The notes below the pieces were generated by a model that was not told where the DNA came from, did not search any database, and worked only from the letters and a program-made list of their open reading frames with translations. From positions 121,992 through 185,991 of the forward strand of contig CBDCNG010000005.1 of NCBI GenBank assembly GCA_965219335.1: a DNA stretch of 64,000 bases, in the 5' to 3' direction. The DNA is from Leeuwenhoekiella sp. (GTDB taxonomy: Bacteria; Bacteroidota; Bacteroidia; Flavobacteriales; Flavobacteriaceae). The stretch's first letter is position 1. Every line of letters begins with the position of its first letter. Of this stretch, positions 2,148-59,865 are shown in pieces. The translations under genes were made by a program, and so were the position numbers.

Positions 2148-2172
2148 CTTTATCTTATTTGAAGTTTATTAC

Positions 2173-2264
2173 CCGCTAATGCTAATAATTTTTACAAACA
2201 TCATTCTGATCTTGTTCCGATAGATATTGGAACAATATCTCATAAACATTGAGTGCTCAATATT
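2173..2264. repeat. Dispersed ~65-90 bp palindrome-rich repeat, copy A
   Basis: Core 2201-2264 aligns at about 51/66 with 38710-38775; contains hairpin TTGTTCCGA-tagata-TTGGAACAA and palindrome ATTGAG-tg-CTCAAT. Confidence 0.7.
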
Positions 2265-2338
2265 TGTAGATGCGACCTGAATCAAGTGAAGGGTGACAAT
2301 ACATTTGTGACACATTCATCACATTCAAATTTTAAGGT

Positions 2339-3130: not shown

Positions 3131-3342
3131 TTTAAGATTTATTTGATTGATTTAAATTACAGCTTAGTGAGTTGAGAAAGCAACTTTAAATATTCAAAGT
3201 GAAAATTGTATCGTGTTTTAAACTAAAAACTTTACTGATTTAGCTTGAATTAAGTACGGTTTCGATTTAATGAGGACTAAAACCTGAAAGGTAATATACT
3301 TTTTTGAAACGGGGGTTTTAATAATTTAAAGGAATATAATTA

Positions 3343-3370
3343 AAAAGTCCGATCAAATGACCGGACTTTT
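3343..3370 (-). terminator. Rho-independent terminator of the gyrA-TPR transcript
   Basis: AAAAGTCCGATCA-aa-TGACCGGACTTTT just downstream of the TPR gene stop; T-tract on the minus strand. Confidence 0.75.
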
Positions 3371-3394
3371 AATTCAATAAGAAAGATTTAAAGC

Positions 3395-4708: not shown

Positions 4709-4735
4709 ATTGGTTTAATATTTGGTTCAACTTAA

Positions 4736-7276: not shown

Positions 7277-7468
7277 AGATAAATTTCTTAGTTTTTAAAT
7301 GTAACGCTATCGCGCAAGATACGTAAATCAGGTGTTTTAGCCCATATTTATAGCCTTGTTGCACATAATTTTTATTAACAAAAAATAAATGCACTCTTTA
7401 ATAAGTATGCTTATCTTGTCTTGCGATTATGAAAGTAATTTTGTCAATTTACGGGACATACTTAGCAA

Positions 7469-7483
7469 CGGAACGATTTTTGA
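7469..7483 (+). promoter_or_regulatory. Possible sigma-54-type -24/-12 element upstream of clpC
   Basis: CGGAACGATTTTTGA resembles TGGCACG-N4-TTGC; a similar GGGAACGGTTTTTGG lies at 26772-26786. Confidence 0.3.
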
Positions 7484-7522
7484 AATCTTCCTGTTAAAAA
7501 ATAGCAAAGATTGAATATTGAT

Positions 7523-10069
7523 ATGGATGATAATTTTTCCCCAAGAGTTAAAGATGTAATTGCTTACAGCAAAGAGGAGGCACTGAGGTTGGGTCATGAT
7601 TACATAGGTACCGAACATCTGATGCTGGGCCTTTTGAGGGATGGTAGTGGCAAGGCCATTGAGATCCTACAGACACTGAGTATAGATTTGAGTCACTTGC
7701 GACGCAAAGTTGAGATTCTCAGCCCCGCAAGTCCCAATTATGCGGTGGGCAGCAATGAAAAAAAGAATCTGCACCTTACAAGGCAGGCAGAACGTGCGTT
7801 AAAAACGACCTTTTTGGAAGCAAAGCTTTTCCAAAGCACATCAATAAATACTGCACACCTTTTATTATGTGTATTGCGCAATGAAAATGATCCTACAACT
7901 AAATTGCTCAATAAGCTGAAAGTAGATTATGATAATGTTAAAGATCAATTCAAGCTTATGATGACTAGTGATGATAATTATATTGAGCCCATTAAGGGAG
8001 AATCCCTGAGTGATGATGACTCTACTACCGATTCTGGTAAGGAAAATCCATTTAATTCTGGAGGGGGCAAGACTACCAAAAAGTCTAAAACACCCGTACT
8101 CGATAATTTTGGCCGGGATCTAACCGTTCTTGCGCAAGAGGATAAACTGGATCCAGTAGTGGGTAGGGAAAAAGAGATTGAGCGTGTTTCGCAAATTTTA
8201 AGTCGAAGGAAAAAGAATAATCCTTTGCTTATCGGGGAGCCCGGAGTTGGTAAATCCGCTATTGCGGAAGGATTGGCGCTTCGTATTATAAAGAAAAAAG
8301 TATCCAGGATACTCTTTGATAAAAGGGTGGTAACCCTTGATCTTGCAAGTCTGGTAGCGGGTACCAAATACCGAGGCCAATTTGAGGAAAGGATGAAGGC
8401 GGTAATGAACGAACTTGAAAAGAATAATGATATTATCCTTTTTATTGATGAAATTCATACCATTGTAGGGGCTGGTGGAGCTACAGGTTCACTGGATGCG
8501 AGCAACATGTTTAAACCGGCGCTTGCCCGGGGTGAAATACAATGCATCGGCGCAACTACTTTAGATGAATATAGACAATACATCGAGAAAGATGGCGCAC
8601 TGGAGCGACGTTTTCAAAAAGTGATTGTAGAACCTACCACCATTGAGGAAACCATAGAAATCCTGGAAAATATCAAGGATAAATATGAGGATCATCACAA
8701 CGTGGTCTATACGCCCGAAGCTATTGAGGCCTGTGTAAAATTGACCAGTAGGTATATGACTGATCGTTTCTTGCCGGATAAGGCGATAGACGCTCTTGAT
8801 GAAGCGGGTTCCCGTGTGCATATTACCAATATTGATGTCCCTAAAAAAATATTGGATCTTGAACGCCAACTTGATGAGGTGCGCGAACGTAAAAATTCTG
8901 TGGTCAAAAAACAGAAATATGAAGAGGCGGCCAAATTAAGGGATGACGAAAAAAATCTGGAGAAAGATCTCGCCCTGGCCCAAGAGCGATGGGAAGAAGA
9001 ATCTAAGATGCATAAGGAGACGGTAAGTGAAGATAACGTGGCTGATGTGGTCTCTATGATGTCAGGTATTCCCGTAAATCGGATCGCCAAAACGGAAACC
9101 AATAAACTTGCGGAACTCCCAACATCAATTAAAAATAAAGTGATTGGTCAGGATGATGCTGTTGCTAAAGTTGCAAAAGCTATTCAGCGTAACAGGGCGG
9201 GTCTTAAAGATCCCCAAAAACCGATTGGTTCATTTATCTTTTTGGGTCAGACTGGAGTTGGTAAAACACAACTTGCCAAAATTTTGGCTACGGAACTATT
9301 TGATAACGAGGATGCACTCATTCGTATAGATATGAGTGAATACATGGAAAAATTTGCCGTCTCTCGTCTTGTAGGCGCGCCTCCTGGATATGTAGGCTAT
9401 GAAGAGGGTGGCCAGTTGACTGAAAAAATTCGTAGGAAACCCTACAGTGTCGTACTTCTTGATGAAATCGAAAAAGCACATCCTGATGTGTTTAACATGT
9501 TGCTGCAGGTATTGGATGACGGTTATCTAACCGATTCTTTGGGAAGAAGGATAGATTTTAGGAATACCGTGATCATTATGACCTCCAATATCGGGGCCAG
9601 AAGATTAAAGGATTTTGGTCAGGGGGTTGGCTTTGGTACTCAGGCCAGAAAGGATCAGGCAGAAGAAAATACCAGAAATGTCATTCAAAGCGCTTTAAAA
9701 AAGACTTTCGCACCAGAGTTTTTAAACCGTGTGGATGATGTAGTCATTTTTAACTCACTTGAGCGTGAGGAGATTCATAAAATAATTGACATTGAGCTCA
9801 AAAAACTTTATAAACGCATCGAAGATTTGGGTTACGACCTTAAACTTAGTGATAAGGCCAAAGACTTTATCGGCGATAAAGGATTTGATAAAGAATATGG
9901 TGCAAGGCCACTCAAAAGAGCAATTCAAAAATATATTGAAGATGCCCTTGCCGAAGAGATCATAACCGCCCACTTAGAAGAGGGTGATAGTATTTTTATG
10001 GATCTGAAAGAAGGTGAAGATGAGCTAAGTATTCATATTGACAAGCACGAGAACAGTACACAATCTTAG
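7523..10069 (+). CDS. clpC: ATP-dependent Clp protease ATP-binding subunit (ClpC type)
   Basis: Clp-N domain, two Walker A motifs ([16 protein letters not shown]), UVR-like middle coil; ATG at 7523 preferred over TTG at 7511. Confidence 0.96.
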
Positions 10070-10087
10070 TGATATTCTAACAACTTC

Positions 10088-10118
10088 AAAAAACCATCCC
10101 TTATCCGGATGGTTTTTT
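10088..10118 (+). terminator. Rho-independent terminator of clpC
   Basis: AAAAAACCATCC-cttatcc-GGATGGTTTTTT. Confidence 0.85.
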
Positions 10119-10182
10119 ATTTAATTTCATTTGGGTTATTCAGTAGTAAACTTATCTAATAAAACCCCTTTAGCTTAAACCA

Positions 10183-10563
10183 ATGAATTACAAAGCCGTT
10201 TTCCCTTTTGGCAAAGTTGAAATTTGTGACAGTTATATAATTTCAGAGCCATATGAGGGAGTTACTATAGACAATGAGGAATTACAAACCATTTTAAATC
10301 ATTGCAAAAACATATTTAAAGAAAAACCCTACGGCTACATTTGCAGAAGGGTAAACTCCTATAGTGTAAACCCGCTGGTATATCTAAAAGATAGCAAAAC
10401 GCACAATGTTAAGGCTGTCGCCATTGTGGTTAGAAGTAGTAGTGGTAATTCAATGGCAAATATTGAAAAACACTTTTCAGCCGTACCATTTCAAATTTTT
10501 AATGAAGAAGAGGAAGCCAAAAAGTGGATTATTCAACATTTGAAAGATTCGGAAGATGCTTAA
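10183..10563 (+). CDS. Hypothetical protein, STAS/SEC14 (SpoIIAA-like) fold
   Basis: YGYICRRVNSYSVNP motif and C-terminal F-x-x-x-x-x-A-x-x-W typical of Flavobacterial SpoIIAA-like proteins. Confidence 0.65.
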   Translation: MNYKAVFPFGKVEICDSYIISEPYEGVTIDNEELQTILNHCKNIFKEKPYGYICRRVNSYSVNPLVYLKDSKTHNVKAVAIVVRSSSGNSMANIEKHFSAVPFQIFNEEEEAKKWIIQHLKDSEDA

Positions 10564-10566
10564 TAT

Positions 10567-11616
10567 TTAGTTGAATTTCAGTTTGGCGATTCTTCCATTT
10601 CCAGAAGCATAGGCCGTAGAATCATTGAGAAACCGAAGAGCATAAAATCCCTCATCACTTAATGTTGACCAATGTTTCCCCTCGTCACTACTATAATGTA
10701 TGCCTTTGAAGCCGGTGGCGACAAGTGCCCTACCCCCATCGTTGGGAACAAATTGAATACAGCTGTTATAGCCTGGGCTTTGTCCCTGCGCCACAAGCGA
10801 CCAACTTTTGCCACCATCTAGCGTAATCGCCTTATTGGATTCGTTTTCCTCTGGTTTAGTGTAATCCCCACCAATTATAAAACCGATATTTTCATTATAA
10901 AAATCAATGGAATATCCTCCCTGAGTTGCTGAACCTTGTAATAAAGGGGTGTCAAAAACCTCCCAATTCTTGCCTTTATCCGATGTGTACAAAACTCTGG
11001 ATGCCATACCACCTGTGATGATCCAGGCTTTATCGCCCATGATCGCTATATTCGTATTACTCGCTGCAAACGCAGCTTCCCCCTTTTTAGCTTTAGGCAG
11101 ACCAGAACAGGAAATTTTTTTCCAGGTATTCCCTCCGTCGCGCGTAATAATGATCGAAAGGCAATCCGCTGTAGGGTCGCCCATGGCAATGCCTTCCTGA
11201 TCGTTCCAAAATTTCATACTGTCATAAAACACCTTCTCATTCTCTTCGGCGTAGACCAGTTTCATCTGTCCGTTATCACCGGTTTTGTATAGAAGGGCCG
11301 GATTTGCAACACTAAGCATCAAAAAATCTGAAGAGGTATGCGCAGTGGCCCTAAATTCGGGATTTACACTGTCACCCTTTATCACATTTGTATTCCATAA
11401 CTTGGTTTTTGGATCATAAAGTCCATATTTTCCTCCAGAACCGGCAAAGGCCAAACTTCCATCGTCCAGTATTTCAAGTGTTCTAATACTCGTGGAATCT
11501 TCATAAATGGTCTCAATTTCTACTGAAGAAAATGGAGTTTTAACAGGTTTTTGATCGTTTTTGCGGCAGCTGATTAATAAGGTTAACAGTAATAAGCACA
11601 ATGAGTTTCGCATCAA
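10567..11616 (-). CDS. BNR/Asp-box beta-propeller lipoprotein (YCF48-like)
   Basis: Lipobox LLISC; repeated T/S-x-D-G-G-x-x-W Asp-boxes (TRDGGNTW, TSDKGKNW, TLDGGKSW, SSDEGKHW). Confidence 0.85.
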   Translation of the reverse strand: MMRNSLCLLLLTLLISCRKNDQKPVKTPFSSVEIETIYEDSTSIRTLEILDDGSLAFAGSGGKYGLYDPKTKLWNTNVIKGDSVNPEFRATAHTSSDFLMLSVANPALLYKTGDNGQMKLVYAEENEKVFYDSMKFWNDQEGIAMGDPTADCLSIIITRDGGNTWKKISCSGLPKAKKGEAAFAASNTNIAIMGDKAWIITGGMASRVLYTSDKGKNWEVFDTPLLQGSATQGGYSIDFYNENIGFIIGGDYTKPEENESNKAITLDGGKSWSLVAQGQSPGYNSCIQFVPNDGGRALVATGFKGIHYSSDEGKHWSTLSDEGFYALRFLNDSTAYASGNGRIAKLKFN

Positions 11617-11658
11617 TTGAATTTTGGTTCAAAATAAAACTTTTCGTTAACAAAAACC

Positions 11659-11666
11659 TACCTTTG
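11659..11666 (+). promoter_or_regulatory. Bacteroidota -7 promoter element
   Basis: TACCTTTG matches TAnnTTTG, 22 nt upstream of the ATG at 11689. Confidence 0.65.
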
Positions 11667-11688
11667 CGGCTTATTTTAAAACTATTCC

Positions 11689-12909
11689 ATGCGCCTACAC
11701 CGCAACTTGGTATTTGCCGTTATAGACGGACTTCTAGAAATTTTTAACGAGGGTGAATATGCCGATAAAACCATCGCCAAACAGCTCAAACGCGATAAGC
11801 GCTGGGGTGCGCGTGACCGCGGTTTTATCGCTGAAACAACCTATGATATCGTGCGCTGGAAAAGGCTTTACGCCGAAATTGCCGAGGTCAGGGAGCCCTT
11901 TCAACGAAAAGATCTCTGGCGGATTTTTGCGGTATGGTGCACGCTGCGCGGAATAAAACTGCCTGACTGGCCACAAATCGAGGAAACCCCTACACGCAGA
12001 ATCAAGGGCCGTTTTGATGAACTTTCAAGTATTAGGAAATTCCGAGAAAGCATCCCCGATTGGATAGATGAGCTGGGTGAAAAGGAACTTGGTAAAAAAT
12101 GGGATGCTGAGATTGCTGCCTTAAACGAGCAGGCACCGGTGATACTGCGTGTAAATAAATTGAAGGCAACACTGGATGAAGTTCAACAACAACTCAGTAC
12201 AGAAGGACACGAAACCATAATCCTTAAAAAATATCCTGATGCGCTACAGCTTCAGGAACGAGGCAACGTTTTTATCACCGAAGCTTTCAAAAAAGGCTTT
12301 TTTGAAGTACAGGACGCCTCCTCACAATTGGTCGCTCCCCTACTCGCCGTCCAGCCCGGCATGCGCGTTGTGGACGCCTGTGCCGGTGCTGGAGGAAAAG
12401 CGCTGCACCTCGCTGCGCAAATGGATAATAAAGGGGTGATCATCGCACTGGATATCTATGCCAATAAACTCAAGGAACTAAAACGTCGTGCGCGTCGTGC
12501 CGGGGCGCATAACCTGGAGACGCGCCATATTGATTCTACTAAGGTCATTAAAAAACTTTATAATTCGGCAGATCGCGTATTGATTGATGCGCCTTGTTCC
12601 GGGTTGGGCGTTTTAAGCCGTAATCCGGATGCCAAATGGAAGCTGGAGCCTGATTTTCTTGAAAAAATTAAGAAGACTCAACAAAACCTGCTTCAGGATT
12701 ATTCCAAAATGGTCAAGCCAGGTGGCAAGATGGTCTATGCAACCTGCTCTATTTTGCCCTCCGAAAATCAAGATCAGGTCAAGACTTTTATCGCTTCTGA
12801 AGCGGGTAAGGAATTTAGTATAGAACAGCAGAAATCCATATTATCAAGTGAATCTGGATATGATGGGTTTTTTATGGCTTTGCTTTCGCGAAAGCAGGAA
12901 GAAAACTAA
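11689..12909 (+). CDS. RsmB/NOP family SAM-dependent RNA m5C methyltransferase
   Basis: EVQDASSQ, VDACAGAGGK, DAPCSG and YATCS motifs. Confidence 0.93.
   Translation: MRLHRNLVFAVIDGLLEIFNEGEYADKTIAKQLKRDKRWGARDRGFIAETTYDIVRWKRLYAEIAEVREPFQRKDLWRIFAVWCTLRGIKLPDWPQIEETPTRRIKGRFDELSSIRKFRESIPDWIDELGEKELGKKWDAEIAALNEQAPVILRVNKLKATLDEVQQQLSTEGHETIILKKYPDALQLQERGNVFITEAFKKGFFEVQDASSQLVAPLLAVQPGMRVVDACAGAGGKALHLAAQMDNKGVIIALDIYANKLKELKRRARRAGAHNLETRHIDSTKVIKKLYNSADRVLIDAPCSGLGVLSRNPDAKWKLEPDFLEKIKKTQQNLLQDYSKMVKPGGKMVYATCSILPSENQDQVKTFIASEAGKEFSIEQQKSILSSESGYDGFFMALLSRKQEEN
12881..12896. repeat. Iterated palindrome GCTTTCGCGAAAGC (exact copies at 12882, 16742, 55236; variants at 18078, 33090, 37281, 59323, 59582)
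   Basis: Read directly from the sequence; occurs in both coding and intergenic DNA. Confidence 0.75.
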
Positions 12910-13039
12910 GGATGTAGCACTGCAATCGTTCAGAAAAGAAAAATGATGTATTAAAGTGGTGAGTTATTTAAGGTTTCTGAACACATAATAGTTTAACAGT
13001 AAGCAACTGAATATTCGATAATACAAAATGATTTGAAGG

Positions 13040-14074
13040 GTGAAAAGGGCACTTTACATACTCTTTATATTATTAGGCAGCACATGCTTCGCCCAGCAGG
13101 CATATTACAACGATGTTGACCTGACCAAGCGTGGTCTCGATCTTCGGGATGAACTTGCCGATAAGGTAATTCGCACGCACGTTAATTTGCTCAGTTACAC
13201 CCCGGGGATTTGGGAAGCCTTAAAAATTATTGATACTGATCCCAAAAACCCCGATAATGTTTTGCTGATGTACGGTTTTGAAGGAGGAAATGATCAGGAT
13301 CCAGAAAATGACAGGGCCCGGAACAAAAACCAGAACGGAGGCGCTAATGGTGACTGGAACCGGGAACATATCTACCCAAAATCTTTGGGAAAACCCAATT
13401 TAGGAACTGAAGGACCGGGAGCAGACGCACATCAGTTGCGAGCTAGCGATGTAAAACGGAATGCCAGACGTGCCAACCGAAAATATGCCGAAGGAAGCGG
13501 GAATTCTGGAAATGTGGATGCGTACTGGTATCCCGGCGATGAGTGGAAAGGCGATGTCGCGCGTATGCTAATGTATATGTATCTGCATTATGGGGAGCGC
13601 TGCCTTCCTCAAAGTGTGGTGGTGGGTGATGCTAATAGCGTAGATCCCAATATGATCAACCTCTTATTAAAATGGAATGCCGAAGATCCGGTTTCCGCGG
13701 TGGAAGATCAGCGTAATGAATACCTTTCAGGCAGCGCAAAGTACGCCCAGGGCAATCGCAATCCATTTATTGATGATCCCTATCTGGCCACCTTAATATG
13801 GGGCGGACCCGCAGCCGAGGATCGCTGGGGAATATTTTCAGCGATAACTAAGGATAAGTTTATGGCAGAAGCGATCACGCAGTCCGATAGTTTGGTTCTG
13901 GTAAAAACCCCAAAAAACATAGAGCAGATCACTGTCTATGATATGAAGGGACGGCTTGTGGAACGGTATAAAAAAAGAAGTGAAATCAACACCAAATTTT
14001 ATGCTGACGGGATTTATTTTTTGGTAGTAAGTACTAAAAATGACGATGTGATCATTGACTTCAGGGTTGAATAA
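13040..14074 (+). CDS. Secreted endonuclease I family nuclease with a T9SS type-A-like C-terminal domain
   Basis: Signal peptide; WNREHIYPKS, DAHQL, KGDVARM, QGNRNPFIDDP; C-terminal ITVYDMKGRLV...GIYFLVV. Confidence 0.85.
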   Translation: MKRALYILFILLGSTCFAQQAYYNDVDLTKRGLDLRDELADKVIRTHVNLLSYTPGIWEALKIIDTDPKNPDNVLLMYGFEGGNDQDPENDRARNKNQNGGANGDWNREHIYPKSLGKPNLGTEGPGADAHQLRASDVKRNARRANRKYAEGSGNSGNVDAYWYPGDEWKGDVARMLMYMYLHYGERCLPQSVVVGDANSVDPNMINLLLKWNAEDPVSAVEDQRNEYLSGSAKYAQGNRNPFIDDPYLATLIWGGPAAEDRWGIFSAITKDKFMAEAITQSDSLVLVKTPKNIEQITVYDMKGRLVERYKKRSEINTKFYADGIYFLVVSTKNDDVIIDFRVE

Positions 14075-14299
14075 CTTAAGGAATATCAGCGGTTATTTAA
14101 TAATAAATCTACGGCAAAAACATGAAAATTATGTTGATTAATCATTGATTTATAATATTTTAAAATGCTTTACTTAATGTATTGCTTATTCAAGTTTTCA
14201 TCTATTACTATATAATCATTTGAAACGCTTTCATTCTCACGACCAAACTGGGATTACTCATTTAATAAACTTAATTTTATACCCGAAAACCACCGCATT

Positions 14300-17200
14300 A
14301 TGATCTATTTTTTCGGCGATCCGGATACTAAAGTATATACTGTACAGAAAGAAGGTGAACTAGCGCAAAAAACCATTGACAAACTCGTTTGGCTTTTTGG
14401 CGATCAACCTCAGATTCAGGCGTCTATAATCGACGCTTTTTTTATTGGCCCACGCGCCACGATGATCACGCCCTGGAGTACCAATGCTGTTGAGATCACT
14501 CAAAACATGGGTATTACAGGAATATTTCGCATCGAAGAATTTACGCCTTGTGTGGCCGATTTTGATGCGTACGACCCTATGCTTTCGCAGAAATATCGAA
14601 AGCTCGATCAGGATATTTTTCACATTGATATCGAGCCTGACCCCATACTTTATATTGAGGATATTTATGGGTATAACGAAAAAGAAGGTCTTGCGCTCAA
14701 TGAGGAGGAGATCGCTTATCTTAACGCAGTTGCTGCACGCGTTGGGCGAAAACTGACCGATAGTGAGGTTTTCGGCTTTAGCCAAGTAAATTCTGAACAT
14801 TGCAGACACAAAATCTTCAATGGCACTTTCGTGATCGATGGGAAGCAAATGTCCTCTTCCCTTTTTAAAATGATCAGGAAAACTTCAGAAAAAAACCCTA
14901 ATGGGATTATTTCGGCATATAAGGACAACGTAGCCTTTGTAAACGGCCCAAAAACCGTACAATTTGCCCCAAAAACGGCCGATAAACCCGATTATTACTG
15001 CGAGACAGACTTTGACAGTGTGCTTTCGCTCAAGGCGGAAACCCACAACTTTCCCACGACGGTAGAACCTTTTAACGGGGCCGCAACCGGCGCCGGCGGT
15101 GAGATCCGCGACCGTTTGGCCGGCGGTAAAGGTTCACTACCACTCGCTGGGACCGCTGTGTATATGACCGCATATTCCCGGCTGGGGGAAGACCGCCCCT
15201 GGGAGCAGGCAATGCCCGCCAGAAATTGGCTTTACCAGAGCCCCATCGATATTTTGATCAAAGCGTCAAATGGCGCCTCAGATTTTGGGAATAAATTCGG
15301 GCAACCGCTTATAGCCGGATCCGTATTGACGTTTGAACATGATGAGCGTTTAAATTTCCGCGAAGACGGAAATTTTTCTACTCCACGCCGCCTGGCTTAC
15401 GACAAAGTTATCATGCAGGCCGGCGGTATTGGCTACGGCAAGAAATCGCAAGCATTAAAAGATAAGCCCAAAACAGGCGATAAAATTGTTATTTTGGGCG
15501 GTGATAATTACCGCATCGGTATGGGCGGCGCTGCAGTCTCCTCAGCAGATACGGGCGAATTCCACTCTGGCATTGAGCTTAATGCGGTACAGCGTAGCAA
15601 TCCCGAGATGCAGAAACGGGCCGCAAACGCCATACGCGGGATGGTAGAAGGTGATCATAACCCCATTATTTCCATTCACGATCATGGTGCAGGTGGTCAT
15701 CTCAACTGTCTTTCTGAACTTGTGGAAGAAACCGGCGGCAATATTGACCTTGATAAACTTCCCGTGGGCGATCCTACCCTTTCCGCAAAGGAGATTATAG
15801 GCAACGAGTCGCAGGAACGTATGGGCCTTGTCATCGATGATAAAGCGATCCAGACTTTGCGGGCCATTGCAGAACGTGAGCGCTCGCCCATGTATGAAGT
15901 GGGCACTGTAACCGGTGATCACCGCTTTACGTTCAAATCAAAAACCAGTGGTGAATCCCCCATGGATCTCGACTTGCACGATATGTTCGGTAGTTCACCA
16001 AAAACCGTGATGAGCGATTCCACTATTGACCGCAATTATGCCAATTTAGACTATAATTTAGGCGATTTTCACGATTATTTGGAAGCGGTGCTGCAACTTG
16101 AAGCCGTGGCCTGTAAGGATTGGCTAACCAATAAAGTGGACCGCTGTGTGGGAGGGCGCGTGGCCAAACAACAGTGTGCGGGCAGTTTACAATTGCCGCT
16201 CAATAACTGTGGTGTAATGGCGCTCGATTTTAAGGGCAAAAAAGGTATCGCGACCTCCATAGGCCACTCCCCTATTTCTGGTTTGATCGATCCTGTAGCC
16301 GGCAGTAAAAACAGTATCGCAGAAGCCCTGACCAATATTATCTGGGCTCCGCTGGAGGATGGTTTAAAATCTGTTTCCCTGTCAGCAAATTGGATGTGGC
16401 CCTGCAACAATCCCGGTGAAGACGCACGTTTATATAAGGCTGTCGAAGCCGTTTCAGAATTTGCGGTAGCATTGGGCATTAACGTGCCAACCGGGAAAGA
16501 TTCACTCTCGATGAAACAAAAATATCCCGATGGTGAAGTTCTCGCTCCGGGAACCGTAATTATTTCGGCGGCGGGAGAATGCTCAAATATTAATCAGGTG
16601 ATCGAGCCTGTTCTAAAGGAAAATGAGGGTGCTATTTATTACATAAACCTTTCCCAAGACAATTTTAAACTGGGCGGATCATCCTTTGCACAGACGCAGA
16701 ATAAAATTGGTACAGAAGCGCCAACGATCAAAAATTCTATCGCTTTCGCGAAAGCATTTGACGTCATTCAAAACCTGATCAAAAATGAAATGATTGTTGC
16801 CGGCCACGATGTCGCTTCCGGCGGATTGATCACCACATTGTTGGAACTATGTTTTGCCGAAAATAAGTTGGGTGCAGATATTGATCTTTCCGCTTTCGCT
16901 GAAAAGGATACCGTCAAGATCCTGTTTTCCGAAAATGCGGGCATCGTTTTTCAGGCAAAAAAAGACTGCGATGTCGAAAAGATCTTGGCAGAAAAGAAGA
17001 TTGAATTTCAAAAAATAGGCAGCGTAACCTCGTCAGAAACGCTCAAAATCAGGAAAAATGGCACCGAAATCGGTCTAAATATCCCATCCCTGCGCAGGAA
17101 ATGGTTTAAAACCTCCTTTCTTTTAGATCAAAAGCAGACCGCAAACAATCTTGCGGAAGAACGATTTGATAATTTTGACAAACAGGCACTTTCTTTTGAT

Positions 17201-18004
17201 TTACCAGCTCATTTTACGGGCAAAAAACCTGCATTAAACACCCAAAAACCCCGTCCAAAAGCAGCGATTTTACGGGAAAAAGGAAGTAATTCTGAACGCG
17301 AAATGGCAAACGCTATGTTCCTTGCCGGTTTTGATGTAAAAGACGTGCACATGACCGATTTGATCGAAGGTCGGGAAACACTGGAAGATATCCAATTTCT
17401 GGGTGCTGTGGGCGGTTTTTCAAACTCAGATGTCTTGGGATCGGCCAAAGGTTGGGCGGGAGCGATTTTATACAACGAGAAAGCCAATCAGGTCATCAAG
17501 AATTTTTTCGCGCGGGAAGATACCCTCTCTGTGGGGATCTGTAATGGTTGTCAACTTTTTGCCGAACTAGATCTTATAAATCCCGACCATAAAGAAAAAA
17601 TAAAATTGCTGCACAACGACTCCCAAAAGCACGAAAGCGGCTTTACCAGCGTAAAAATAGCAGAGAATAATTCCGTCATGTTGTCCTCTTTGGCCGGAAC
17701 GACTTTAGGGGTATGGATTTCTCACGGGGAAGGAAAATTTCACCTTCCACTTGCGGAAGAAAACTACAAAATCGTGGCCAAATACGGTTTTGATGCTTAT
17801 CCTGCAAATCCAAACAATAGCGATTATAACACCGCGATGATGACCGATAAAACCGGGCGTCACTTGGTCACCATGCCGCACATCGAGCGATCCACGTTCC
17901 CTTGGAACTGGGCCAACTATCCCGAAGGAAGGGAGGATGAAGTCAGCCCGTGGATTGAGGCTTTTGTGAATGCCCGGGAATGGATCGAGGGTCGGCTCTC
18001 CTAA
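14300..18004 (+). CDS. purL: Phosphoribosylformylglycinamidine synthase (large fused form)
   Basis: NSEHCRHKIF, KAETHNFPT, HDHGAGG, GVCNGCQ-type glutaminase motif (GICNGCQ), MPHIER. Confidence 0.98.
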   Translation: MIYFFGDPDTKVYTVQKEGELAQKTIDKLVWLFGDQPQIQASIIDAFFIGPRATMITPWSTNAVEITQNMGITGIFRIEEFTPCVADFDAYDPMLSQKYRKLDQDIFHIDIEPDPILYIEDIYGYNEKEGLALNEEEIAYLNAVAARVGRKLTDSEVFGFSQVNSEHCRHKIFNGTFVIDGKQMSSSLFKMIRKTSEKNPNGIISAYKDNVAFVNGPKTVQFAPKTADKPDYYCETDFDSVLSLKAETHNFPTTVEPFNGAATGAGGEIRDRLAGGKGSLPLAGTAVYMTAYSRLGEDRPWEQAMPARNWLYQSPIDILIKASNGASDFGNKFGQPLIAGSVLTFEHDERLNFREDGNFSTPRRLAYDKVIMQAGGIGYGKKSQALKDKPKTGDKIVILGGDNYRIGMGGAAVSSADTGEFHSGIELNAVQRSNPEMQKRAANAIRGMVEGDHNPIISIHDHGAGGHLNCLSELVEETGGNIDLDKLPVGDPTLSAKEIIGNESQERMGLVIDDKAIQTLRAIAERERSPMYEVGTVTGDHRFTFKSKTSGESPMDLDLHDMFGSSPKTVMSDSTIDRNYANLDYNLGDFHDYLEAVLQLEAVACKDWLTNKVDRCVGGRVAKQQCAGSLQLPLNNCGVMALDFKGKKGIATSIGHSPISGLIDPVAGSKNSIAEALTNIIWAPLEDGLKSVSLSANWMWPCNNPGEDARLYKAVEAVSEFAVALGINVPTGKDSLSMKQKYPDGEVLAPGTVIISAAGECSNINQVIEPVLKENEGAIYYINLSQDNFKLGGSSFAQTQNKIGTEAPTIKNSIAFAKAFDVIQNLIKNEMIVAGHDVASGGLITTLLELCFAENKLGADIDLSAFAEKDTVKILFSENAGIVFQAKKDCDVEKILAEKKIEFQKIGSVTSSETLKIRKNGTEIGLNIPSLRRKWFKTSFLLDQKQTANNLAEERFDNFDKQALSFDLPAHFTGKKPALNTQKPRPKAAILREKGSNSEREMANAMFLAGFDVKDVHMTDLIEGRETLEDIQFLGAVGGFSNSDVLGSAKGWAGAILYNEKANQVIKNFFAREDTLSVGICNGCQLFAELDLINPDHKEKIKLLHNDSQKHESGFTSVKIAENNSVMLSSLAGTTLGVWISHGEGKFHLPLAEENYKIVAKYGFDAYPANPNNSDYNTAMMTDKTGRHLVTMPHIERSTFPWNWANYPEGREDEVSPWIEAFVNAREWIEGRLS

Positions 18005-18145
18005 ATAACGATAAATAGAGAATAGTGGTTTTTTTCATGGTATTTTGCCGGTTTATTTGTATGAAATCGTTGTGATTTTTCGCGAAAGCGCTAAAAATAG
18101 ACGCTAAATTTCCTATTTTGCATAAGAAACCTTTTGCCATAAACT

Positions 18146-19921
18146 ATGGAAATTAAACGTCTTTTTGACTTCCCGCAATACCAGCTGGAGAATTATCCGC
18201 TACAAGAATCCCTGGTTACCAAATACAATGGGCAATGGAAGGCACTTTCCACCCAAGAATATTTGGATCAGGCCAATCAATTGAGTCGAGGACTTATAAA
18301 ATTGGGTGTCAAACCCAATGATAAAATCGCGGTCATCTCCACCAGAAATTGTACCGAATGGAATATTGTTGACATCGGTATTTTACAGATAGGCGCTCAA
18401 AATGTTCCTATTTACCCTACGATCTCCCAAGATGAGTATGAATATGTTCTCAATCACAGTGGGGCGATCTTTTGCTTTATTTCTGATGATGAAGTTGCGT
18501 CTAAGGTCAATCAGATCAGGAATAAAGTACCTACTTTAAAAGAGGTATATTCTTTTGAGACCTTAGAGGACTGTAAAAACTGGCAGGAAGTTCTGGAGTT
18601 GGGAAATGACAAAAGCGATCAAAACGAGGTCGAAAAACGTAAAAAAGAAATCACAGAGGAAGATCTTGCCACATTGATCTATACTTCAGGTACCACAGGT
18701 AAGCCCAAGGGAGTGATGCTCAGCCATAAAAACCTGGTAAGCAATGCCCTAAATAGTGAAACGCGGTTTCCTATACGAAAAGGAAAAGATAAGGCCTTGA
18801 GTTTCTTACCGCTCTGCCACGTTTATGAGCGCATGTTGATCTATTTATATCAATATACGGGGGTAGCGATTTATTATGCCGAAAGTATCGATGCGATCAG
18901 CGAAAACCTAAAAGAAGTCAGACCGCAAGTAATGACCGCAGTTCCGCGATTACTGGAAAAAGTTTATGAAAAAATAATCGCCAAAGGCGGCGAACTCACC
19001 GGAATAAAAAAGAAGCTTTTCTTCTGGGCGGTCGATGTGGGCCTTGATTATGAGCCGTATGGCAACAACGGCTGGTGGTACGAGCAGAAATTGGCGCTTG
19101 CGCGAAAGCTGATCTTCAGTAAATGGCAGGAAGGTCTGGGTGGAAACCTTAAAGTGATCGCATCGGGCAGTGCGGCGCTACAACCTCGCTTGTCACGCGT
19201 TTTTAATGCGGCCGGCATTGGGGTAATGGAAGGCTACGGACTTACCGAAACCTCACCGGTAATCGCTGTGAATGACATGCGTAACCATGGCTTTAAAATC
19301 GGTACCGTGGGCAAACCCATTCCGGAGACCGAAATCAAAATAGATGAAGATGGCGAAATTTTGGTCAAAGGTCCACAGTTGATGTTAGGATATTATAAAG
19401 ACAAAGAAAAAACCGAGGAGGCCATTGAGGATGGTTTTTTCCACACCGGTGATATCGGTGAGGTTGACGCCGAAGGTTTCCTCAAGATCACTGACCGTAA
19501 AAAGGAAATGTTCAAGACCAGCGGAGGTAAATACATAGCCCCTCAAATCATTGAGAATGCCATGAAACAGTCACGATTTATCGAGCATATTATGGTAGTA
19601 GGCGAAGGCGAAAAAATGCCAGGAGCAATTATTCAACCCAATTTTGAGTTTATACAGGATTGGGGACGTAAAAAGAACATCAAAGTAGGGGAAAACAATA
19701 AGGAAATCGCCAAAAACCCAGATGTTATCAAACGTCTAAAAGAAGATATAGATACTTACAATGAAAAATTTGGCCATTGGGAAAAGGTCAAACGCTTCGA
19801 ACTAACCCCTGATGAATGGACGATTGAAGAAGGCCACCTAACCCCTACTTTAAAACTTAAGCGCCGTGTGGTTAAAGAGCGGTACATTGATCTTTATAAT
19901 AAGATTTATGACCATAAATAA
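18146..19921 (+). CDS. Long-chain fatty acid-CoA ligase (AMP-dependent synthetase)
   Basis: YTSGTTGKPKG, EGYGLTETSP, FHTGDIG, TDRKKEMFKTSGGKY. Confidence 0.93.
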   Translation: MEIKRLFDFPQYQLENYPLQESLVTKYNGQWKALSTQEYLDQANQLSRGLIKLGVKPNDKIAVISTRNCTEWNIVDIGILQIGAQNVPIYPTISQDEYEYVLNHSGAIFCFISDDEVASKVNQIRNKVPTLKEVYSFETLEDCKNWQEVLELGNDKSDQNEVEKRKKEITEEDLATLIYTSGTTGKPKGVMLSHKNLVSNALNSETRFPIRKGKDKALSFLPLCHVYERMLIYLYQYTGVAIYYAESIDAISENLKEVRPQVMTAVPRLLEKVYEKIIAKGGELTGIKKKLFFWAVDVGLDYEPYGNNGWWYEQKLALARKLIFSKWQEGLGGNLKVIASGSAALQPRLSRVFNAAGIGVMEGYGLTETSPVIAVNDMRNHGFKIGTVGKPIPETEIKIDEDGEILVKGPQLMLGYYKDKEKTEEAIEDGFFHTGDIGEVDAEGFLKITDRKKEMFKTSGGKYIAPQIIENAMKQSRFIEHIMVVGEGEKMPGAIIQPNFEFIQDWGRKKNIKVGENNKEIAKNPDVIKRLKEDIDTYNEKFGHWEKVKRFELTPDEWTIEEGHLTPTLKLKRRVVKERYIDLYNKIYDHK

Positions 19922-37217: not shown

Positions 37218-37404
37218 AATCGGCGATAAGTGTCATAATGCTTATTTTTGATCGCTCAAATACGTGGTTAAAAAAATATCGCTTTCGCGGAAGCTTAAAA
37301 ATTTAAAGAATTAATCTTATACAATATAGAAGTAAAGGTTTAAAAAGTCATTTATACTAAATAAAGATTAACAAGAGTTGATCTGTACAAAAAATTAAAT
37401 TCAC

Positions 37405-39476: not shown

Positions 39477-42400
39477 ATGCCGATAATTACTACTCTTTCG
39501 CGTACTAGGAGTTTCGTTCTGCTCGTATTCGCTTTTTTAGGTTTTCAATCTTATTTATATGCTCAATGTGCCGGTGACGACAACGCTGTAGAATTTTGTT
39601 CAAAACAAGATCAGCAGTTCATCGATCTCTTCACACAGTTAAATGGCACCCCTGCTACTGGTGGTACCTGGAGTGACGATGACGATAGCGGCGGTCTTGA
39701 CAATGCTGATGCTACAAATGGTATGTTAAATACCTATGCCATTACGAAAGGTGGTGTTTTTCATTATACCTACACTATTAGCGGTGACGACTCCTGTACC
39801 GATAATTCAGCTACCATTACCCTTACCCTGGGATCTTATGCCGGGGTTGATAACAATGGGGCGGTGGCCTGTGGTGACGATTCTTCGGTAAATTTATTTC
39901 AATTTACGGGAAGCAGCCCAAGCCCAACCGGTGATGGCTCTTGGACAAGTCCCGACTCGCCCAATGGATATGCGGGTGGCTCCCGTTTTGATGCTTCCAA
40001 AGCGGGAAAAGGAGTTTACACTTTTATTTATACCGTACCCGCACAAGGGGATAATTGTCCTTCACAATCCAGCACAGTACAACTTGAAGTTGTGCCTTCA
40101 CCACAATCTGGCACTGCTGAAAAGCAGGTATTTTGTGAAACCCAAGATTTTTCTGGACTCAGGAATTACAATTTGAGAAGTGTCCTTCAAAATGAAGATG
40201 ATGATGGAGCATGGAGCGAGAGCAGCAAAACAAATGAAATATCCAGACCCGGAGATCCTTTTATTAATCTAGAAAACCTTCGTGATTTAGGGCCCGGCCT
40301 ATATGATTTCACTTATACTGTAAATCCTATTAATCCTACGTGTATTGCAGCATCAACGACGGTTACTATAGAGATCGAGGAGGTTATCGACTTTTCTTCA
40401 GCTGTTTTTAGTATTACGGATCCATCTGGCAATATTTGCATCAGTGATCTTCCCTATAATACAATGGGTAAAATAGTGGTAGATGCCAATGCGGTACCAG
40501 ACGATGAATACCAATTGACCTATAGCGTGTCTCCTACCCCCAATGCAGGCTCTGAGACCATACCAGTGAGTTTTAAGGGAGGTGTGGCAACTTTTGCGGT
40601 AAATCCTGACTTTATAACGGATATTGGAGACGTTAACATTGAGGTTACCCAAATAATTGATCCCAATACCCAAAATAATTGCCAGGCTTCTATTAATGGT
40701 CTTGTTGCTAACTTTAAGGTAACCGCTCCACCTGATCTATCCGACACGCAGGTTGTAATCAATGATCCCGTTTGCCTGGGCGAAAGCACCACTGCAACGC
40801 TCTCAGATAAGGGGAACAAGACGGGTATACAGCTCGCAGATGGATTGTATGGTTTAGAATATAGTATAAGTGGCTCAGATGAGACACCCTCTGCAGATGT
40901 AACTATTAATGTGGTAAACGGTACCGCGGTTTTCGGTCTTCAACTGGACGATCAGGGTACAGCCGGAGAGTATACTTTCTATCTGAAATCGGTTCGCAGT
41001 AGTGGTACCTGCATTACGAGCGCAAATATAGAAGACACTTTTACGATTTCCCCAAAAGCAGATGCAACGCTTTTAACAATTGAGGCAACAGATGCATGTG
41101 GACAGGAGAATATCACCGTCTCTCTCGCTGACGGCACAACACCGCTCAGCTTTGAGAATGGCACCTACTCCCTTAAGTATGCCCTAACAGGGAATAATGA
41201 TATTCTGGCATCCCTTGATAATGTTGTTTTTACTGACGGAAAAGCCAGTTTTAGTATTGATGCTACAACTTTAATCCAAGGTAAGACTAATATTACCATT
41301 ACGTCAATTCAAAATCAAGCATCATCATGTGAAGCAATAAATTTAGCGGACCTGACCACAAGTTTCACGCTTTCGCAAAACCCTGATTTAACAGATGCTA
41401 CTTTTAGCGTTGATCCTGTATGCGAAGGGCAGAGCGCTACGGTTGCGCTCACTGCCGCACCAGCTAACGTTCCGGATGCAAATTATACCATCAGTTATTC
41501 AGTGGCTGACGGCACAAATACAGCAGAGTATACCGCTACTGCGGAAGTTACAACCGGTACGGCATCTTTTGAAATTGCACCCGAAGCGATCACAGCTGCC
41601 ACAACCTATGCATTGACCATTAACGGGTTTTCAAACAATACTACCGGATGTGAAGCCTCGGGGCTTCCACTTACAGTAAACTTTCAAGTATTTGCAAATC
41701 CACAACTTGACACAGCTACCCTTACAGCGGCCACCGTATGCTCTGCCGATGATGTTGCGGTAGCCATAACTGGGGCAGCGCTTACCAATGGTGATTATAA
41801 GCTGGTCTATGCCATAACGGGTGCCAACACAATTAAAGACAGCATATCCAATCTAAGTTTTGTAGATGGTAAGGCTTCATTTACAATTCTTTCAAATAAA
41901 CTTGGCAAGACAGGTAAGAATACATTAGCCCTCCTAAATATCAAAACCGTACAAACGGGATGTGAAACTATACTTAGCGGAATTGAAACCAATTTTAATA
42001 TTAACACAACTCCAAATGTAACTACTGCAGAATTAAGTTATGATGCAGATTTGTGCCTTGGGGCCACGGCAATTGTCATCATTAAAGACGACGAAAATAA
42101 CCTAGAGGATGGTAATTATACATTGATCTATTCACTTGACGGCGCTAATATTATAAGTAATCAACCCGCAGTATTGGAGATAGTTTCTGGAGAAGGTTCT
42201 TTCACGATTCCCGCGGATCAACTTGTAAACTCGGGAAGCACTTATTTACGATTAATAATATTGCTCATACGGATACTTCCTGCTCACTAGATTCTCCTGG
42301 GCTTACGGGTACCTTTATCATCAATGCCCAACCAGACCTAAGTGAGGCAAGTATTCTAGTAGATGATTCCTGCGAGGGCACAATGGATAGAACAATTACA

Positions 42401-44119
42401 GTCCAGGCGCCAAATCTAGATGATGGTACCTATAACTTTACCTATACTGTTAGCGGCGCAAATGCCGGCACTGCAACTGCAGATAATATATCGATCCAAA
42501 ATGGTTCTGGTACTATGATTATAGACGGAACTCTGTTAAAAAACACGGGCGATACCGATGTTAATCTAAATGCGGTAAGCAGCGCGGCAACTTCATGTAT
42601 TTCCGACGAACTGAATGTTGCCACTACTTTTACGATTAATCCAAAGCCACAATTGGATAATGATAATCTTTCGGTCAGTTCGGTGTGTTTTGGCGAAAGC
42701 CATATAGTATCCATCAATGAGCCTGCATTGGGTAACGCGACCTATATGCTTACCTACACACTTAGCGATGCGAATGTAAAAGAAGAACAGACGATTAATA
42801 TCAGCACCGTAAATGGTAAAGCTTCCTTCAACCTTGATGCGGCAGATCTTACGGCAAGTGGAAATACGACCTTAACGATAGAGCGTATCACCAATAGTAG
42901 CACCTTGTGCACGAGTACCGGCACAAATACAGCAAGTTTTGAGGTTTATCCCATCCCTTCACTCGCAGATTCAACGGTAGCAGCGGTAGATGTATGCCTT
43001 AACGAAGATGGAATGGTAACCGTAACTGGAGGATCTGGCCTTACCGATATGGAATATAGCGTGACGTATTCCCTGAGTGGTGCGACCACCGCCATCGCTC
43101 AAGAGGCCCAACTCCTTATCACAGACGGCAAGGGCAGCTTCAATATCCCAACAGCATTGTTGAGCGCCGCAGGTATGGTAACAGTCAATATAGAAAATAT
43201 TACCAGTGCAGTAGGCTGTACTTCGGGTGCCATTTTAGTAAGTAGCTCTTTCGAAATTCTACCTCTACCGGATGCGGCTGGTATTTCGGTCGCTATAAGC
43301 GATTACTGCATCAATAATGATGTGCCCGTAAATATATCAGGGGCGGTTAATCTCGCCGATGGAGATTATAGAATTGATTATAGCCTTAATGGTGCTAATA
43401 TTGGAAATAATACCATAAATGTCGCTTTTACTGGCGGTAATGCATCCTTTACACTCCCGGCAGCAGAGCTTTCCGAACGAGGAAATACTACCCTGTCTAT
43501 TACAAACGTCAAAAACTTTATTGATCTGTGCGGTGCTGAGAACATCAATGGCGCATCTGCGACTTTTGAGGTTCAGGATCCCGATCCGCCCACGCTGGCG
43601 GCAAGTGGCAATGTGTTTTGCATTAACGATGAGCCCAAGATCAGCGATTTGTTAGCACGTATTACGCCAACTAGCGGTCTTCATATATATGAATCAGAAA
43701 CTGACAATATAGCTTTAAATGAAAACAATACCCTCATTAATGGAAAAAGTTATTTCATTTCGATAACTAGTTCAGAATCTGGCTGTGAGAGCAGCGTTAG
43801 ACTTGAGGTAACGGTAGATCTTACCGGGTGTGGTAACATATTTATCCCAGAAGGCTTCTCCCCTAATGGCGATGGCGTCAACGACACATTTACAATACAG
43901 AATATAGGTTTTGTATATCCTAGCTATACCCTTGAGATCTTTAATAGGTTGGGCAATGTGGTTTACAAGGGAGGCGCAAATATGCCTGCATGGGACGGTC
44001 ACTCAAACCAGCATACAATTAGCGATAAGGTGCTGCCCAATGGTGTCTATTTCTACATCATAAATTATAACGACGGGCAGACAAGCCCGAAACAAGGAAA
44101 ACTTTACCTAAACCGCTAA
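39477..44119 (+). pseudogene. Large T9SS type-B (gliding motility-associated CTD) surface protein, ~1547 aa, split by a 1-nt deletion near 42245 (true lesion or sequencing error)
   Basis: Signal peptide, Cys-containing Ig-like repeats (DGxYxLxYSLSGAN) in both ORFs, CTD IFIPEGFSPNGDGVNDTF...GVYFYII...GKLYLNR. Adding one T (TAT TTT ACG ATT AAT) joins the two ORFs through an open linker. Confidence 0.85.
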
Positions 44120-55007: not shown

Positions 55008-55320
55008 AGAAGCTATTTTCTGCTAAATTAATAAATATACTTCTGGCGCAGGTTGTGTTCTTAGACCAATACCGCGCTTATTTAAAGCATTATTGGCTGC
55101 GCTCAAGGCGAAAACTGATCAGAATACCAGAAATCAAATTAGAATATATCGTATTATAGAAAGCTACACATCTGTAATTTCCAAACGATTCAACCAGATT
55201 TAAAAGGGATTCTGCAACTAGACCATAACAGGAACGCTTTCGCGAAAGCAATTGGAATATGCAGCTATTTTATCCAGTAATTCAGCCATAAATTACCCAA
55301 TTTCCCCTTATTTTTGAATT

Positions 55321-59256: not shown

Positions 59257-59865
59257 TCAGGAAGACAACCATTTTAACTGCAGGCTTTTTTGTTCACTTT
59301 CGCTCAGTTGCCATTGCTTGTCGCTTTCGCGTAAGCGGTACATCAGATCCTGAATAATAATCGCTGCAGACACTGAAATATTAAGGCTTTGGGTAAAGCC
59401 GTAAGTGGGGATATAAATAAAGTCATCGGCTTCAGCAAGTACCTCATCGCTCAAACCTTTGGCCTCGCTCCCAAAAAAAAGTGCAGCAGGTTTTTCGATA
59501 TTAAAATTAGCAAGCGTGTTTTTTTTATAATGGGGTGTGGTAGCTACAATTTTGTATCCCCGCTCGCGTAACTTTTTTATCGCTTCCGCGGAAGCGTTAT
59601 AGCGGTACAGACTGACCCATTTTTGTGCACCCATGGCAATCTCGCGGTCAATGCGCCGGCCAAACTCCTCTTCTATCACATGCACCTCCTGAATACCAAA
59701 CGCCTCGCAGCTGCGCATAACCGCGCTTGTATTATGCAGATGGCCTACATCTTCTATAGCGACGGTAAAATGATTGGTGCGGGTCTTGGCAATCTCCTCA
59801 AAAAGTTTTCTCCTTCTTGGGGTTACCTGGTTTTTTAAAAGTGAAAGCTGTTTATCATCATCCAT
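59257..59865 (-). CDS. TrmH/SpoU family RNA 2'-O-methyltransferase
   Basis: HNTSAVMRSCEAFG, FFGSEAKG, SLNISVSAA. Confidence 0.92.
   Translation of the reverse strand: MDDDKQLSLLKNQVTPRRRKLFEEIAKTRTNHFTVAIEDVGHLHNTSAVMRSCEAFGIQEVHVIEEEFGRRIDREIAMGAQKWVSLYRYNASAEAIKKLRERGYKIVATTPHYKKNTLANFNIEKPAALFFGSEAKGLSDEVLAEADDFIYIPTYGFTQSLNISVSAAIIIQDLMYRLRESDKQWQLSESEQKSLQLKWLSS

Follow-up and report, generated by a model that had tools for sequence, protein, structure and literature searches.

A 14-bp palindrome, GCTTTCGCGAAAGC, occurs three times in a 64-kb stretch of Leeuwenhoekiella DNA (C5:121992-185991, hereafter the window) and 189 times in the 4.50-Mb, 9-contig assembly to which the window belongs (G000; 41.6% GC, 99.96% complete). 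We refer to the exact 14-bp palindrome as the word. The motif is GCTTYCGCGRAAGC, often extended to CGCTTTCGCGAAAGCG, and it is a genomic signature word of the same kind as the highly iterated palindrome HIP1 and the DNA uptake sequences. That the word is real, made by substitution and maintained at the level of DNA is close to certain. Markov models of orders 0 to 5 predict only 0.01-0.21 copies in the genome, which corresponds to observed/expected ratios (O/E) of 900-19,000. Within open reading frames (ORFs), 114 exact copies were counted, whereas 20 shuffles of synonymous codons within genes gave 0.9 on average. The initial annotation of the window had described a HIP1-like highly iterated palindrome, and this description stands: the word is hyper-abundant, it survives both the Markov and the codon-preserving correction, and it occupies all three reading frames as well as spacers.

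Abundance, placement and origin of the word

The word and its sub-words are the commonest 10-, 12-, 14- and 16-mers of the genome, with TTTCGCGAAA found 324 times and CGCTTTCGCGAAAGCG 79 times. Neither TCGCGA (836 occurrences) nor CGCG (9212) is enriched on its own; the enrichment concerns only the 14-16-bp word. Flanking information drops to background beyond the adjacent base on either side, where C at -1 and G at +14 are each found in about 63% of copies. The sole further signal in the flanks is weak and symmetric, T-rich on the 5' side and A-rich on the 3' side. All contigs carry the word at 3-9 copies per 100 kb, and the counts in 25-kb bins are Poisson-like (variance/mean 1.06). From k = 18 upward a CRISPR-like repeat becomes the top k-mer of the genome instead: the leading 18-20-mers belong to a CRISPR-like family (containing ATTTCAATTCCTTTATGGGTCGATTAGAA, about 84-86 copies) and to a second family (GCTGTAAATCCTAGTACAAAGTACAATTCTGA, about 42 copies).

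With genes called by a longest-ORF proxy (87% coding), 114 copies (60%) are located in ORFs and 75 are intergenic, the density in spacers being about 4.4 times higher. The ORF copies are read as AFAKA (74), FRES (21) or LSRK (19). The exact word encodes 74 of the 79 AFAKA pentapeptides in the proteome; it is the DNA word that shapes the proteome and not the reverse. A protein motif as the cause is ruled out by this single codon string together with the use of three frames and of spacers. Intergenic copies are slightly over-represented within 0-60 nt of a preceding stop codon (40% versus 25%), ORF starts are depleted, and the convergent, divergent or tandem context of the flanking gene pairs equals expectation. 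One spacer, between smpB and an ORF of 822 aa of outer-membrane type, contains two exact palindromes 32 bp apart (C5:652334 and C5:652366). This pair looks like an operator, but no DNA-binding gene that could encode an autoregulated factor is adjacent.

Orthologous codons, compared at tens of sites and with single-gene trees, reveal how copies arise. Gap-free alignment of the purL site in 21 congeners shows 10-13 of 14 positions matching the word (for example GCA TTC GCG AAA ACA), while G000 and its congener G017 reach 14 of 14 through one synonymous and one Thr>Ala change. Four genomes from three other genera, G285, G305, G347 and G052, have the exact word at this codon, and the sequence is unrelated in the palindrome-poor genomes G066, G137, G099 and G383. 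Eight ORF sites of G000 have orthologues in the 400 kb of G017 that were compared. Four of them are exact in both genomes and three are found in G000 only, with no gap and 3-5 residues replaced (SAFAKAN/LEYAEDN, IAFAKAI/FDFIQTI and ERFRESI/SKIRDQL for G000 and G017, respectively); the eighth alignment, at 25% identity, is too weak to read.

A cystathionine-gamma-synthase-like gene provides the clearest distribution. It encodes AFAKA through the exact word in G000 (189 copies genome-wide), G017 (85), G013 (84), G305 (797) and G285 (409). Seven palindrome-poor congeners were tested, of which five retain the ancestral DFEK/N-A (GAT TTT GAA AAA GC, 10 of 14 matches), and the outgroups and the other two poor congeners carry near variants of it. 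The presence of the word at this individual site thus tracks the genome-wide copy number. Codon distances suggest that SFEKA in G014 and SFSKA in G008 look like decayed AFAKA.

Further alignments concern conservation. In high-scoring segment pairs of 63-76% identity, four of the five alignable G017 sites are exact in G000 although their immediate flanks differ. Twelve sites of the low-copy congeners G016, G005 and G019 could be aligned with G000, which has the exact word at six, one mismatch at four and unrelated sequence at two. Conversely, 10 of 14 syntenic G000 sites, seven of them intergenic, lack a counterpart in G017. These observations point to a conserved intragenic core accompanied by lineage-specific turnover. 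Copies are made in place by point substitutions that overwrite codons, with up to five residues replaced, and their DNA sequence, down to the synonymous positions, is held exact across species- and genus-level divergence. Between gain by point mutation and gain by insertion, the gap-free alignments decide for point mutation.

The same alignments bear on a miniature mobile element (a repetitive extragenic palindromic sequence with its RAYT, REP/RAYT; a miniature inverted-repeat transposable element, MITE; or an in-frame palindromic insert) and on an RNA hairpin acting as terminator or stability element. A palindromic sequence, the enrichment in spacers and the mild excess after stop codons would each fit such an origin. 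Nevertheless, no indel was found at any word site with an unambiguous orthologue alignment, the flanks show no homology to each other, and most copies are within ORFs, which rules out REP/RAYT and MITE (the RAYT gene itself was not searched). A terminator or promoter is ruled out by the unremarkable gene-pair context and by flanks whose T-rich 5' and A-rich 3' sides are the reverse of those of a terminator. In mRNA, the variant that would create a C.A mismatch is found 41 times against 20 for the variant preserving a G.U pair; this preference for mismatch over wobble, together with the lack of covariation described below, rules out an RNA hairpin. We consider both forms of this explanation refuted, with practically no probability left to them.

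Copies in the window and distribution among relatives

The three exact copies of the window compare with none in 100 dinucleotide shuffles, and 11 matches at up to two mismatches compare with 0.22 expected (Table 1). All three exact sites and every near copy that the initial annotation had listed were recovered, the one it gave at 18078 standing here at 18076/18078. Its host genes rsmB, purL and trmH are borne out by Pfam, which assigns the RsmB/F family (12882), PurL (16742) and the SpoU/TrmH family (59323, 59582), and the third exact copy is intergenic as it had stated. The 12882 site has no counterpart in the syntenic interval of G017, where the best match has five mismatches.

Table 1. Matches to the word in the 64-kb window, in window coordinates (CDS, coding sequence).
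Match	Sequence	Position	Location	Remark
Exact	GCTTTCGCGAAAGC	12882..12895	Near 3' end of RsmB/F-family CDS (11689-12909, +)	Frame L-S-R-K
Exact	GCTTTCGCGAAAGC	16742..16755	Within PurL CDS (14300-18004, +)	Frame A-F-A-K-A
Exact	GCTTTCGCGAAAGC	55236..55249	Intergenic, between divergent ORFs 54150-55007 (-) and 55321-55794 (+)	
One mismatch	GCTTGCGCGAAAGC	19096..19109	In AMP-binding-enzyme CDS (18146-19921, +)	Absent from the initial list
One mismatch	GCTTTCGCGGAAGC	37281..37294	Intergenic	Common Y/R variant at position 5/10
One mismatch	GCTTTCGCGTAAGC	59323..59336	In SpoU/TrmH-family CDS (59257-59865, -)	
Doubly variant perfect palindrome	CGCTTCCGCGGAAGCG	59581..59596	In the same SpoU/TrmH-family CDS (59257-59865, -)	Tolerated T>C / A>G in both half-sites
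Two mismatches	TTTTTCGCGAAAGC	18076..18089	Intergenic, 3' of purL	Outer GC lost, core intact
Two mismatches	GCTTTCGCGAAAAA	33090..33103	In a doubtful 105-aa ORF	Outer GC lost, core intact
Two mismatches	GCTTTCGCAAAACC	41369..41382		Mismatch in core; family membership uncertain
Two mismatches	GTTTTGGCGAAAGC	42687..42700		Mismatch in core; family membership uncertain

The word is restricted to certain lineages, being found in some Flavobacteriaceae only. All 23 Leeuwenhoekiella species contain it, with 189 copies in G000 and 4-85 in its 22 congeners, and none was found in 18 further genera of the order. A survey of 401 Flavobacteriaceae genomes (302 genera) revealed three more genera that are hyper-rich (g31 with 722 and 581 exact copies, g264 with 409 and g284 with 797), and most genera have zero. 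Elsewhere in the Bacteroidota, none of about 370 genomes from other families exceeds two copies. In a PurL tree, g264 and g284 are placed next to Leeuwenhoekiella and g31 groups with the poor genus g78. Within the genus, the nearest relatives of G000 in this tree are G014 and G008, with four copies each. The PurL of the window is about 80% identical to that of named Leeuwenhoekiella species, whose loci interleave with the same-genus genomes in the tree, which assigns G000 to this genus. Copy number is a fast-changing lineage trait. In viral and proviral contigs most hits are single and at chance level, and a few contigs have 2-3 copies; IMGVR_UViG_3300039191_000362 (L214/L219/L197) and IMGVR_UViG_2617271332_000001 (L227) each carry three exact copies within 11-38 kb.

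Counting matches at up to two mismatches against a reversed-pattern control gives 566 versus 28 in G000 and 33-88 versus 8-17 in the palindrome-poor congeners. The outgroups G023 (22 versus 21) and G024 (5 versus 12) lack the 3- to 7-fold excess of these congeners. The strong genera are represented by G305 (1117 versus 18), G285 (733 versus 48) and G052 (864 versus 11). Exact copies make up a fraction of 0.84-0.56 of such matches in the strong genera, 0.33 in G000 (189/566), 0.26 in G017 and 0.17 in G013.

The copies of G000 could be seen as mostly a decaying fossil, left by an ancestral force that no longer operates or operates less strongly. The lower exact fraction of G000, the four copies of its closest relatives, the SFEKA and SFSKA peptides of those relatives and the relic excess in poor congeners all agree with such decay. 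On the other hand, the variant spectrum is strongly non-uniform, unlike that of neutral decay, with 6, 1 and 4 changes at positions 3, 4 and 7 and 81 at position 5. The exact copies of G000 still outnumber all its one-mismatch copies, and the syntenic sites missing from G017, including coding sites with 3-5 residues replaced, fit gains in the G000 lineage. We judge it unlikely that decay accounts for most of the set.

Mobile DNA in G000 is devoid of the word. A 186-kb region (C7:1150-1336 kb) has no copy against 7.8 expected; a conjugative transposon (TraG, TraM and T4CP by Pfam) lies in it together with RHS-type ORFs and gene pairs of SusC/D size, and its GC content reaches 0.45. Within the transposon (C7:1150000-1270000) are two near-identical giant RHS/YD-repeat ORFs (C7:1194276-1199102 and 1252732-1257528). 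A different island of about 25 kb is common to at least five Flavobacteriaceae genera (G139, G153, G176, G314, G300; L151-L163) at 74-94% identity. It has 2-5 exact copies at conserved places in large ORFs (about 860-1250 aa), with a recurrent spacing of 933 bp, and many low-copy genera owe their few copies to it. The G000 homologue of this island (C7:253-303 kb, with C5:273000-285000) has no copy in 67 kb. Since mobile regions are empty and islands can carry copies, the word marks long residence in a palindrome-active lineage and travels with exported islands. Copies accumulate only in long-resident DNA.

Putative recognition of the word and candidate factors

The 189 exact copies of G000 outnumber all one-mismatch sites combined (170). 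A single variant, T5>C or its equivalent A10>G, accounts for 68 of these 170 sites, 81 of which vary at position 5. The doubly variant palindrome GCTTCCGCGGAAGC occurs nine times in the genome, where about six copies are predicted if the two half-sites vary independently. The base preference at -1 and +14 is likewise independent between the two sides, and there is no compensatory covariation between the half-sites of the word in G000. Independent half-sites suggest duplex DNA read by a dimeric factor rather than a hairpin. The simplest reading would be a homodimeric factor that binds duplex DNA at two half-sites of 7-8 bp, GCTTYCG. Another palindromic 14-mer, TTCGCTTAAGCGAA, is found nine times in G000; in it the GCTT/AAGC half-sites abut without the central TCGCGA.

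Each strand of the word also holds the mini-hairpin GCGAAAGC, whose extraordinary stability is documented (PMC13037366). Alternatively, then, the signal could be this hairpin in single-stranded DNA (ssDNA), read by a primase or by a GIY-YIG ssDNA nuclease of the Ssn type, which targets CCCGCGMAVGCGGG hairpins (PMC11893778). The core CGCGAAAGCG is common to the word and to the Neisseria NTS hairpin, the tolerated A10>G variant (GCGGAAGC) remains a stable mini-hairpin, and the genomes that have Ssn targets contain many copies of them, with an effect on transformation. Selection of the mini-hairpin d(GCGAAAGC) as the unit is nevertheless ruled out by several results. The equally stable mini-hairpins GCGAGAGC, GCGATAGC, GCGAATGC and GCGAAGC are not over-represented in G000 (O/E 0.75-1.26), and solo half-sites exceed expectation only about 2-fold (262 versus 122). 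The variant spectrum of the word departs from the published melting-temperature table of mini-hairpins: positions 11 and 12, which a hairpin tolerates, are almost invariant, and hairpin-breaking G9 variants are commoner. As DNA, the 16-mer hairpin (-4.3 kcal/mol, z = -0.9) is no better than shuffles, and the absence of covariation argues in the same direction.

The gene content does not favour an Ssn-type reader either. GIY-YIG domains in G000 belong to UvrC, to proteins of about 450 aa and to a 90-aa frame (PF01541; C3:169720-169920), the only small one of the genome, which is interrupted by two TAA stops; no intact small gene of this family is present. Small GIY-YIG genes are found irrespective of whether a genome is rich or poor in the word, with one cluster spanning both kinds, as far as the 22 small ORFs recovered by a regular expression, with incomplete subfamily resolution, allow. 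Ssn repeats moreover have asymmetric flanks and are treated as extragenic in the search scheme, in contrast to the symmetric flanks and largely intragenic copies of the word. An ssDNA hairpin signal is therefore very unlikely.

By analogy with HIP1, the word could stem from a DNA methyltransferase acting with methyl-directed or very-short-patch-like repair (Elhai's model; PMC4390886), and a methyltransferase link had indeed been suggested from the window. The CGCG and TCGCGA cores inside the word would agree with this, as would C>T changes that are 12 times commoner at the outer than at the inner C of CGCG (12 versus 1). A six-frame motif scan of G000, however, identified no C5-type and no type II N6/N4 DNA methyltransferase. 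The sole recognisable DNA methyltransferase is a type I HsdM (N6_Mtase and HsdM_N; C5:1063780-1065549). PF00145 is absent from G000, G017, G285 (409 copies) and G305 (797 copies), although several palindrome-poor genomes have it. For PF01555, no match exists in G000, G017, G013 and G009 and only a sub-threshold one in G305. Neither family tracks the abundance of the word. The cores are unenriched outside the long word, and a specificity of 14-16 bp exceeds that of the known methylase sites. The link is ruled out for G000, and for the word in general we regard a methylation-based origin as largely refuted and highly improbable.

Each copy might instead be individually selected as a binding site of a chromosome-organising protein, comparable to Noc-binding sites (NBS), SlmA-binding sites (SBS), matS of MatP or parS of ParB. 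A 14-16-bp palindrome with independent half-sites, intragenic sites that hold their position across species and copy numbers in the hundreds are all compatible with such a role, and the TTTC..GAAA flavour of the word resembles parS and NBS. Against it, ParB is present as one canonical copy per genome, with no extra paralogue in the palindrome-rich G000, G013, G052, G347, G285 and G305. Additional ParB-family copies of about 600 aa are scattered among genomes without relation to abundance, and the suggestion of a nucleoid signal finds no support in these counts. No gap at origin or terminus is visible in the 9-contig assembly: copies scatter in a Poisson-like manner and do occur at the only GC-skew switch that could be located (C9, about 610 kb). 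A range of 4 to about 800 copies among relatives, with four in the nearest relatives of G000, would be odd for a housekeeping system, and an excess of exact over one-mismatch copies is unusual for collections of protein sites. We consider this role improbable.

A dimeric factor combined with a drive or self-recognition mechanism is the likeliest of the explanations considered, although we give it slightly less than even odds. A sequence-specific force would act in trans, with a homodimeric protein reading duplex DNA as two independent half-sites of 7-8 bp. Lineages possessing the factor would turn suitable pre-sites (D-F-E-K-A or x-F-A-x-A-F, for example) into the word, and lineages losing it would let their copies decay. 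The most likely mode would be a population-level bias favouring alleles that bear the word. This bias could consist in preferential uptake, transfer or recombination of self DNA, a molecular drive as modelled for uptake signal sequences (USS), or alternatively in selection for a mark of self DNA; it would not involve methylation-directed repair.

Several points weigh against a factor with drive or self-recognition. No factor emerged among the methyltransferase, ParB, PilB-type ATPase and Ssn-like candidates; an extra ParB/Noc paralogue, the PilB-type ATPase and an Ssn-like small GIY-YIG nuclease were each rejected for not tracking abundance. An uptake signal, also suggested from the window, would have to operate without the usual uptake machinery. 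The PilB/GspE-type ATPase (PF00437, above the family cut-off) was found only in G000, G005 and G052 and is absent from G017, G013, G285, G305 and G347, and hence from most palindrome-rich genomes; ComEC and DprA were not searched. In G000 the gene lies with a secretin cluster (C7:1237-1243 kb) inside the palindrome-free conjugative transposon region. The literature yielded competence only for Riemerella and none for the genera bearing the word, and one report describes Flavobacterium johnsoniae as not competent (PMC7965970). Known uptake sequences are non-palindromic and 5-20 times denser. The exact fraction of G000, below that of the strong genera, implies that part of its set may be decaying. 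Finally, genes were called by an ORF proxy, and the orthology comparisons cover tens of sites rather than all.

Comparison with known genome-wide words

HIP1 (GCGATCGC) and the alternative HIPs of cyanobacteria (Elhai, 2015, PMC4390886; Xu et al., 2018, PMC5861425) resemble the word in being palindromic and hyper-abundant relative to any Markov expectation. Like the word, they are found in all frames of coding DNA and in spacers and are sometimes extended palindromically. They also share its origin by substitution, its conservation at orthologous sites, and an abundance that varies among relatives and includes lineages with loss. The word differs from GCGATCGC and its derivatives in sequence, in length (14-16 bp versus 8 bp) and in its host, a member of the Flavobacteriaceae (Bacteroidota) and not a cyanobacterium. 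It is also less dense, G000 having 42 exact copies per Mb and other genera at most about 235, versus 300-2700 per Mb for HIP1, and a cognate orphan methyltransferase was sought without success.

The USS of Pasteurellaceae and the DNA uptake sequences (DUS) of Neisseriaceae (PMC2817400, PMC1626085, PMC2397512) are, like the word, signature words built by point mutation. They too favour tolerant frames and protein positions under weak conservation, at the expense of the proteome, and are likewise enriched in spacers and just 3' of genes. Orthologous positions are shared by related taxa, recently acquired DNA lacks them, and exact copies outnumber one-off copies. Unlike USS and DUS, the word is a perfect palindrome, is 5-20 times less dense and has a patchy rather than family-wide distribution. 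Competence is not documented for the genera bearing it, most of whose rich genomes lack the PilB-type ATPase.

The Ssn/NTS (SRM) system of Neisseria, in which Ssn enzymes cut hairpin repeats and modulate transformation (PMC11893778), has in common with the word hundreds of hairpin-capable repeats, a CGCGAAAGCG core and a number that varies among species. SRMs are about 30 bp long with oriented, non-palindromic flanks (HGTCWY...RNCYNB) and cluster around genes including ssnA. In contrast, the word has symmetric flanks without a GTC motif and a Poisson-like scatter with 60% of copies intragenic. An intact small GIY-YIG gene of the cd10448 type is missing from G000, and the family does not track abundance.

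Chromosome-organisation palindromes form a further point of comparison. The NBS of Bacillus subtilis are 14-bp palindromes with tens to hundreds of mostly intragenic, chromosome-wide sites, and they share with the word a 14-16-bp palindrome read by a dimer, which for the word is a putative one. The word differs in having no ParB-family paralogue, no exclusion from the terminus visible in the 9-contig assembly and a 200-fold range of copy number among relatives.

The word has practical consequences. It separates native from acquired DNA in these genomes and flags islands exported by palindrome-rich donors. HIP1 matters for genetic tools in Synechococcus (bioRxiv 10.1101/2024.09.10.611283), and if the word is an uptake or recombination tag it could likewise matter for those of marine Flavobacteriaceae. 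Leeuwenhoekiella species with 189, 85 and 84 copies beside close relatives with 4, and related genera with 400-800, constitute a natural experiment. Because sister species differ about 50-fold in copy number, the factor should be findable, and because site presence tracks the genome-wide number, a full phyletic-profile comparison should expose the responsible gene.

Only a handful of genome-wide signature words are known, HIP1, USS/DUS and Chi among them, and after 30 years it is still not settled what HIP1 does. The literature searched contained neither the word itself nor a description of such a word in these genera. Tentatively, we propose as a possibility a patchy trans-acting system of Flavobacteriaceae, horizontally or vertically inherited, that would recognise a 16-bp palindrome on duplex DNA, drive the word into resident genes at a cost to proteins, and mark self DNA for uptake, transfer, recombination or protection. 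Next to HIP1 and USS/DUS, such a system would add a third class of genome-wide DNA word with a mechanism of its own, requiring neither a methylase nor a type IV pilus. The word is an independent case in a phylum new for words of the HIP1 and USS/DUS kind, twice as long as HIP1, rewriting 3-5 amino acids at a time, and without the methyltransferase that dominates thinking about HIP1.

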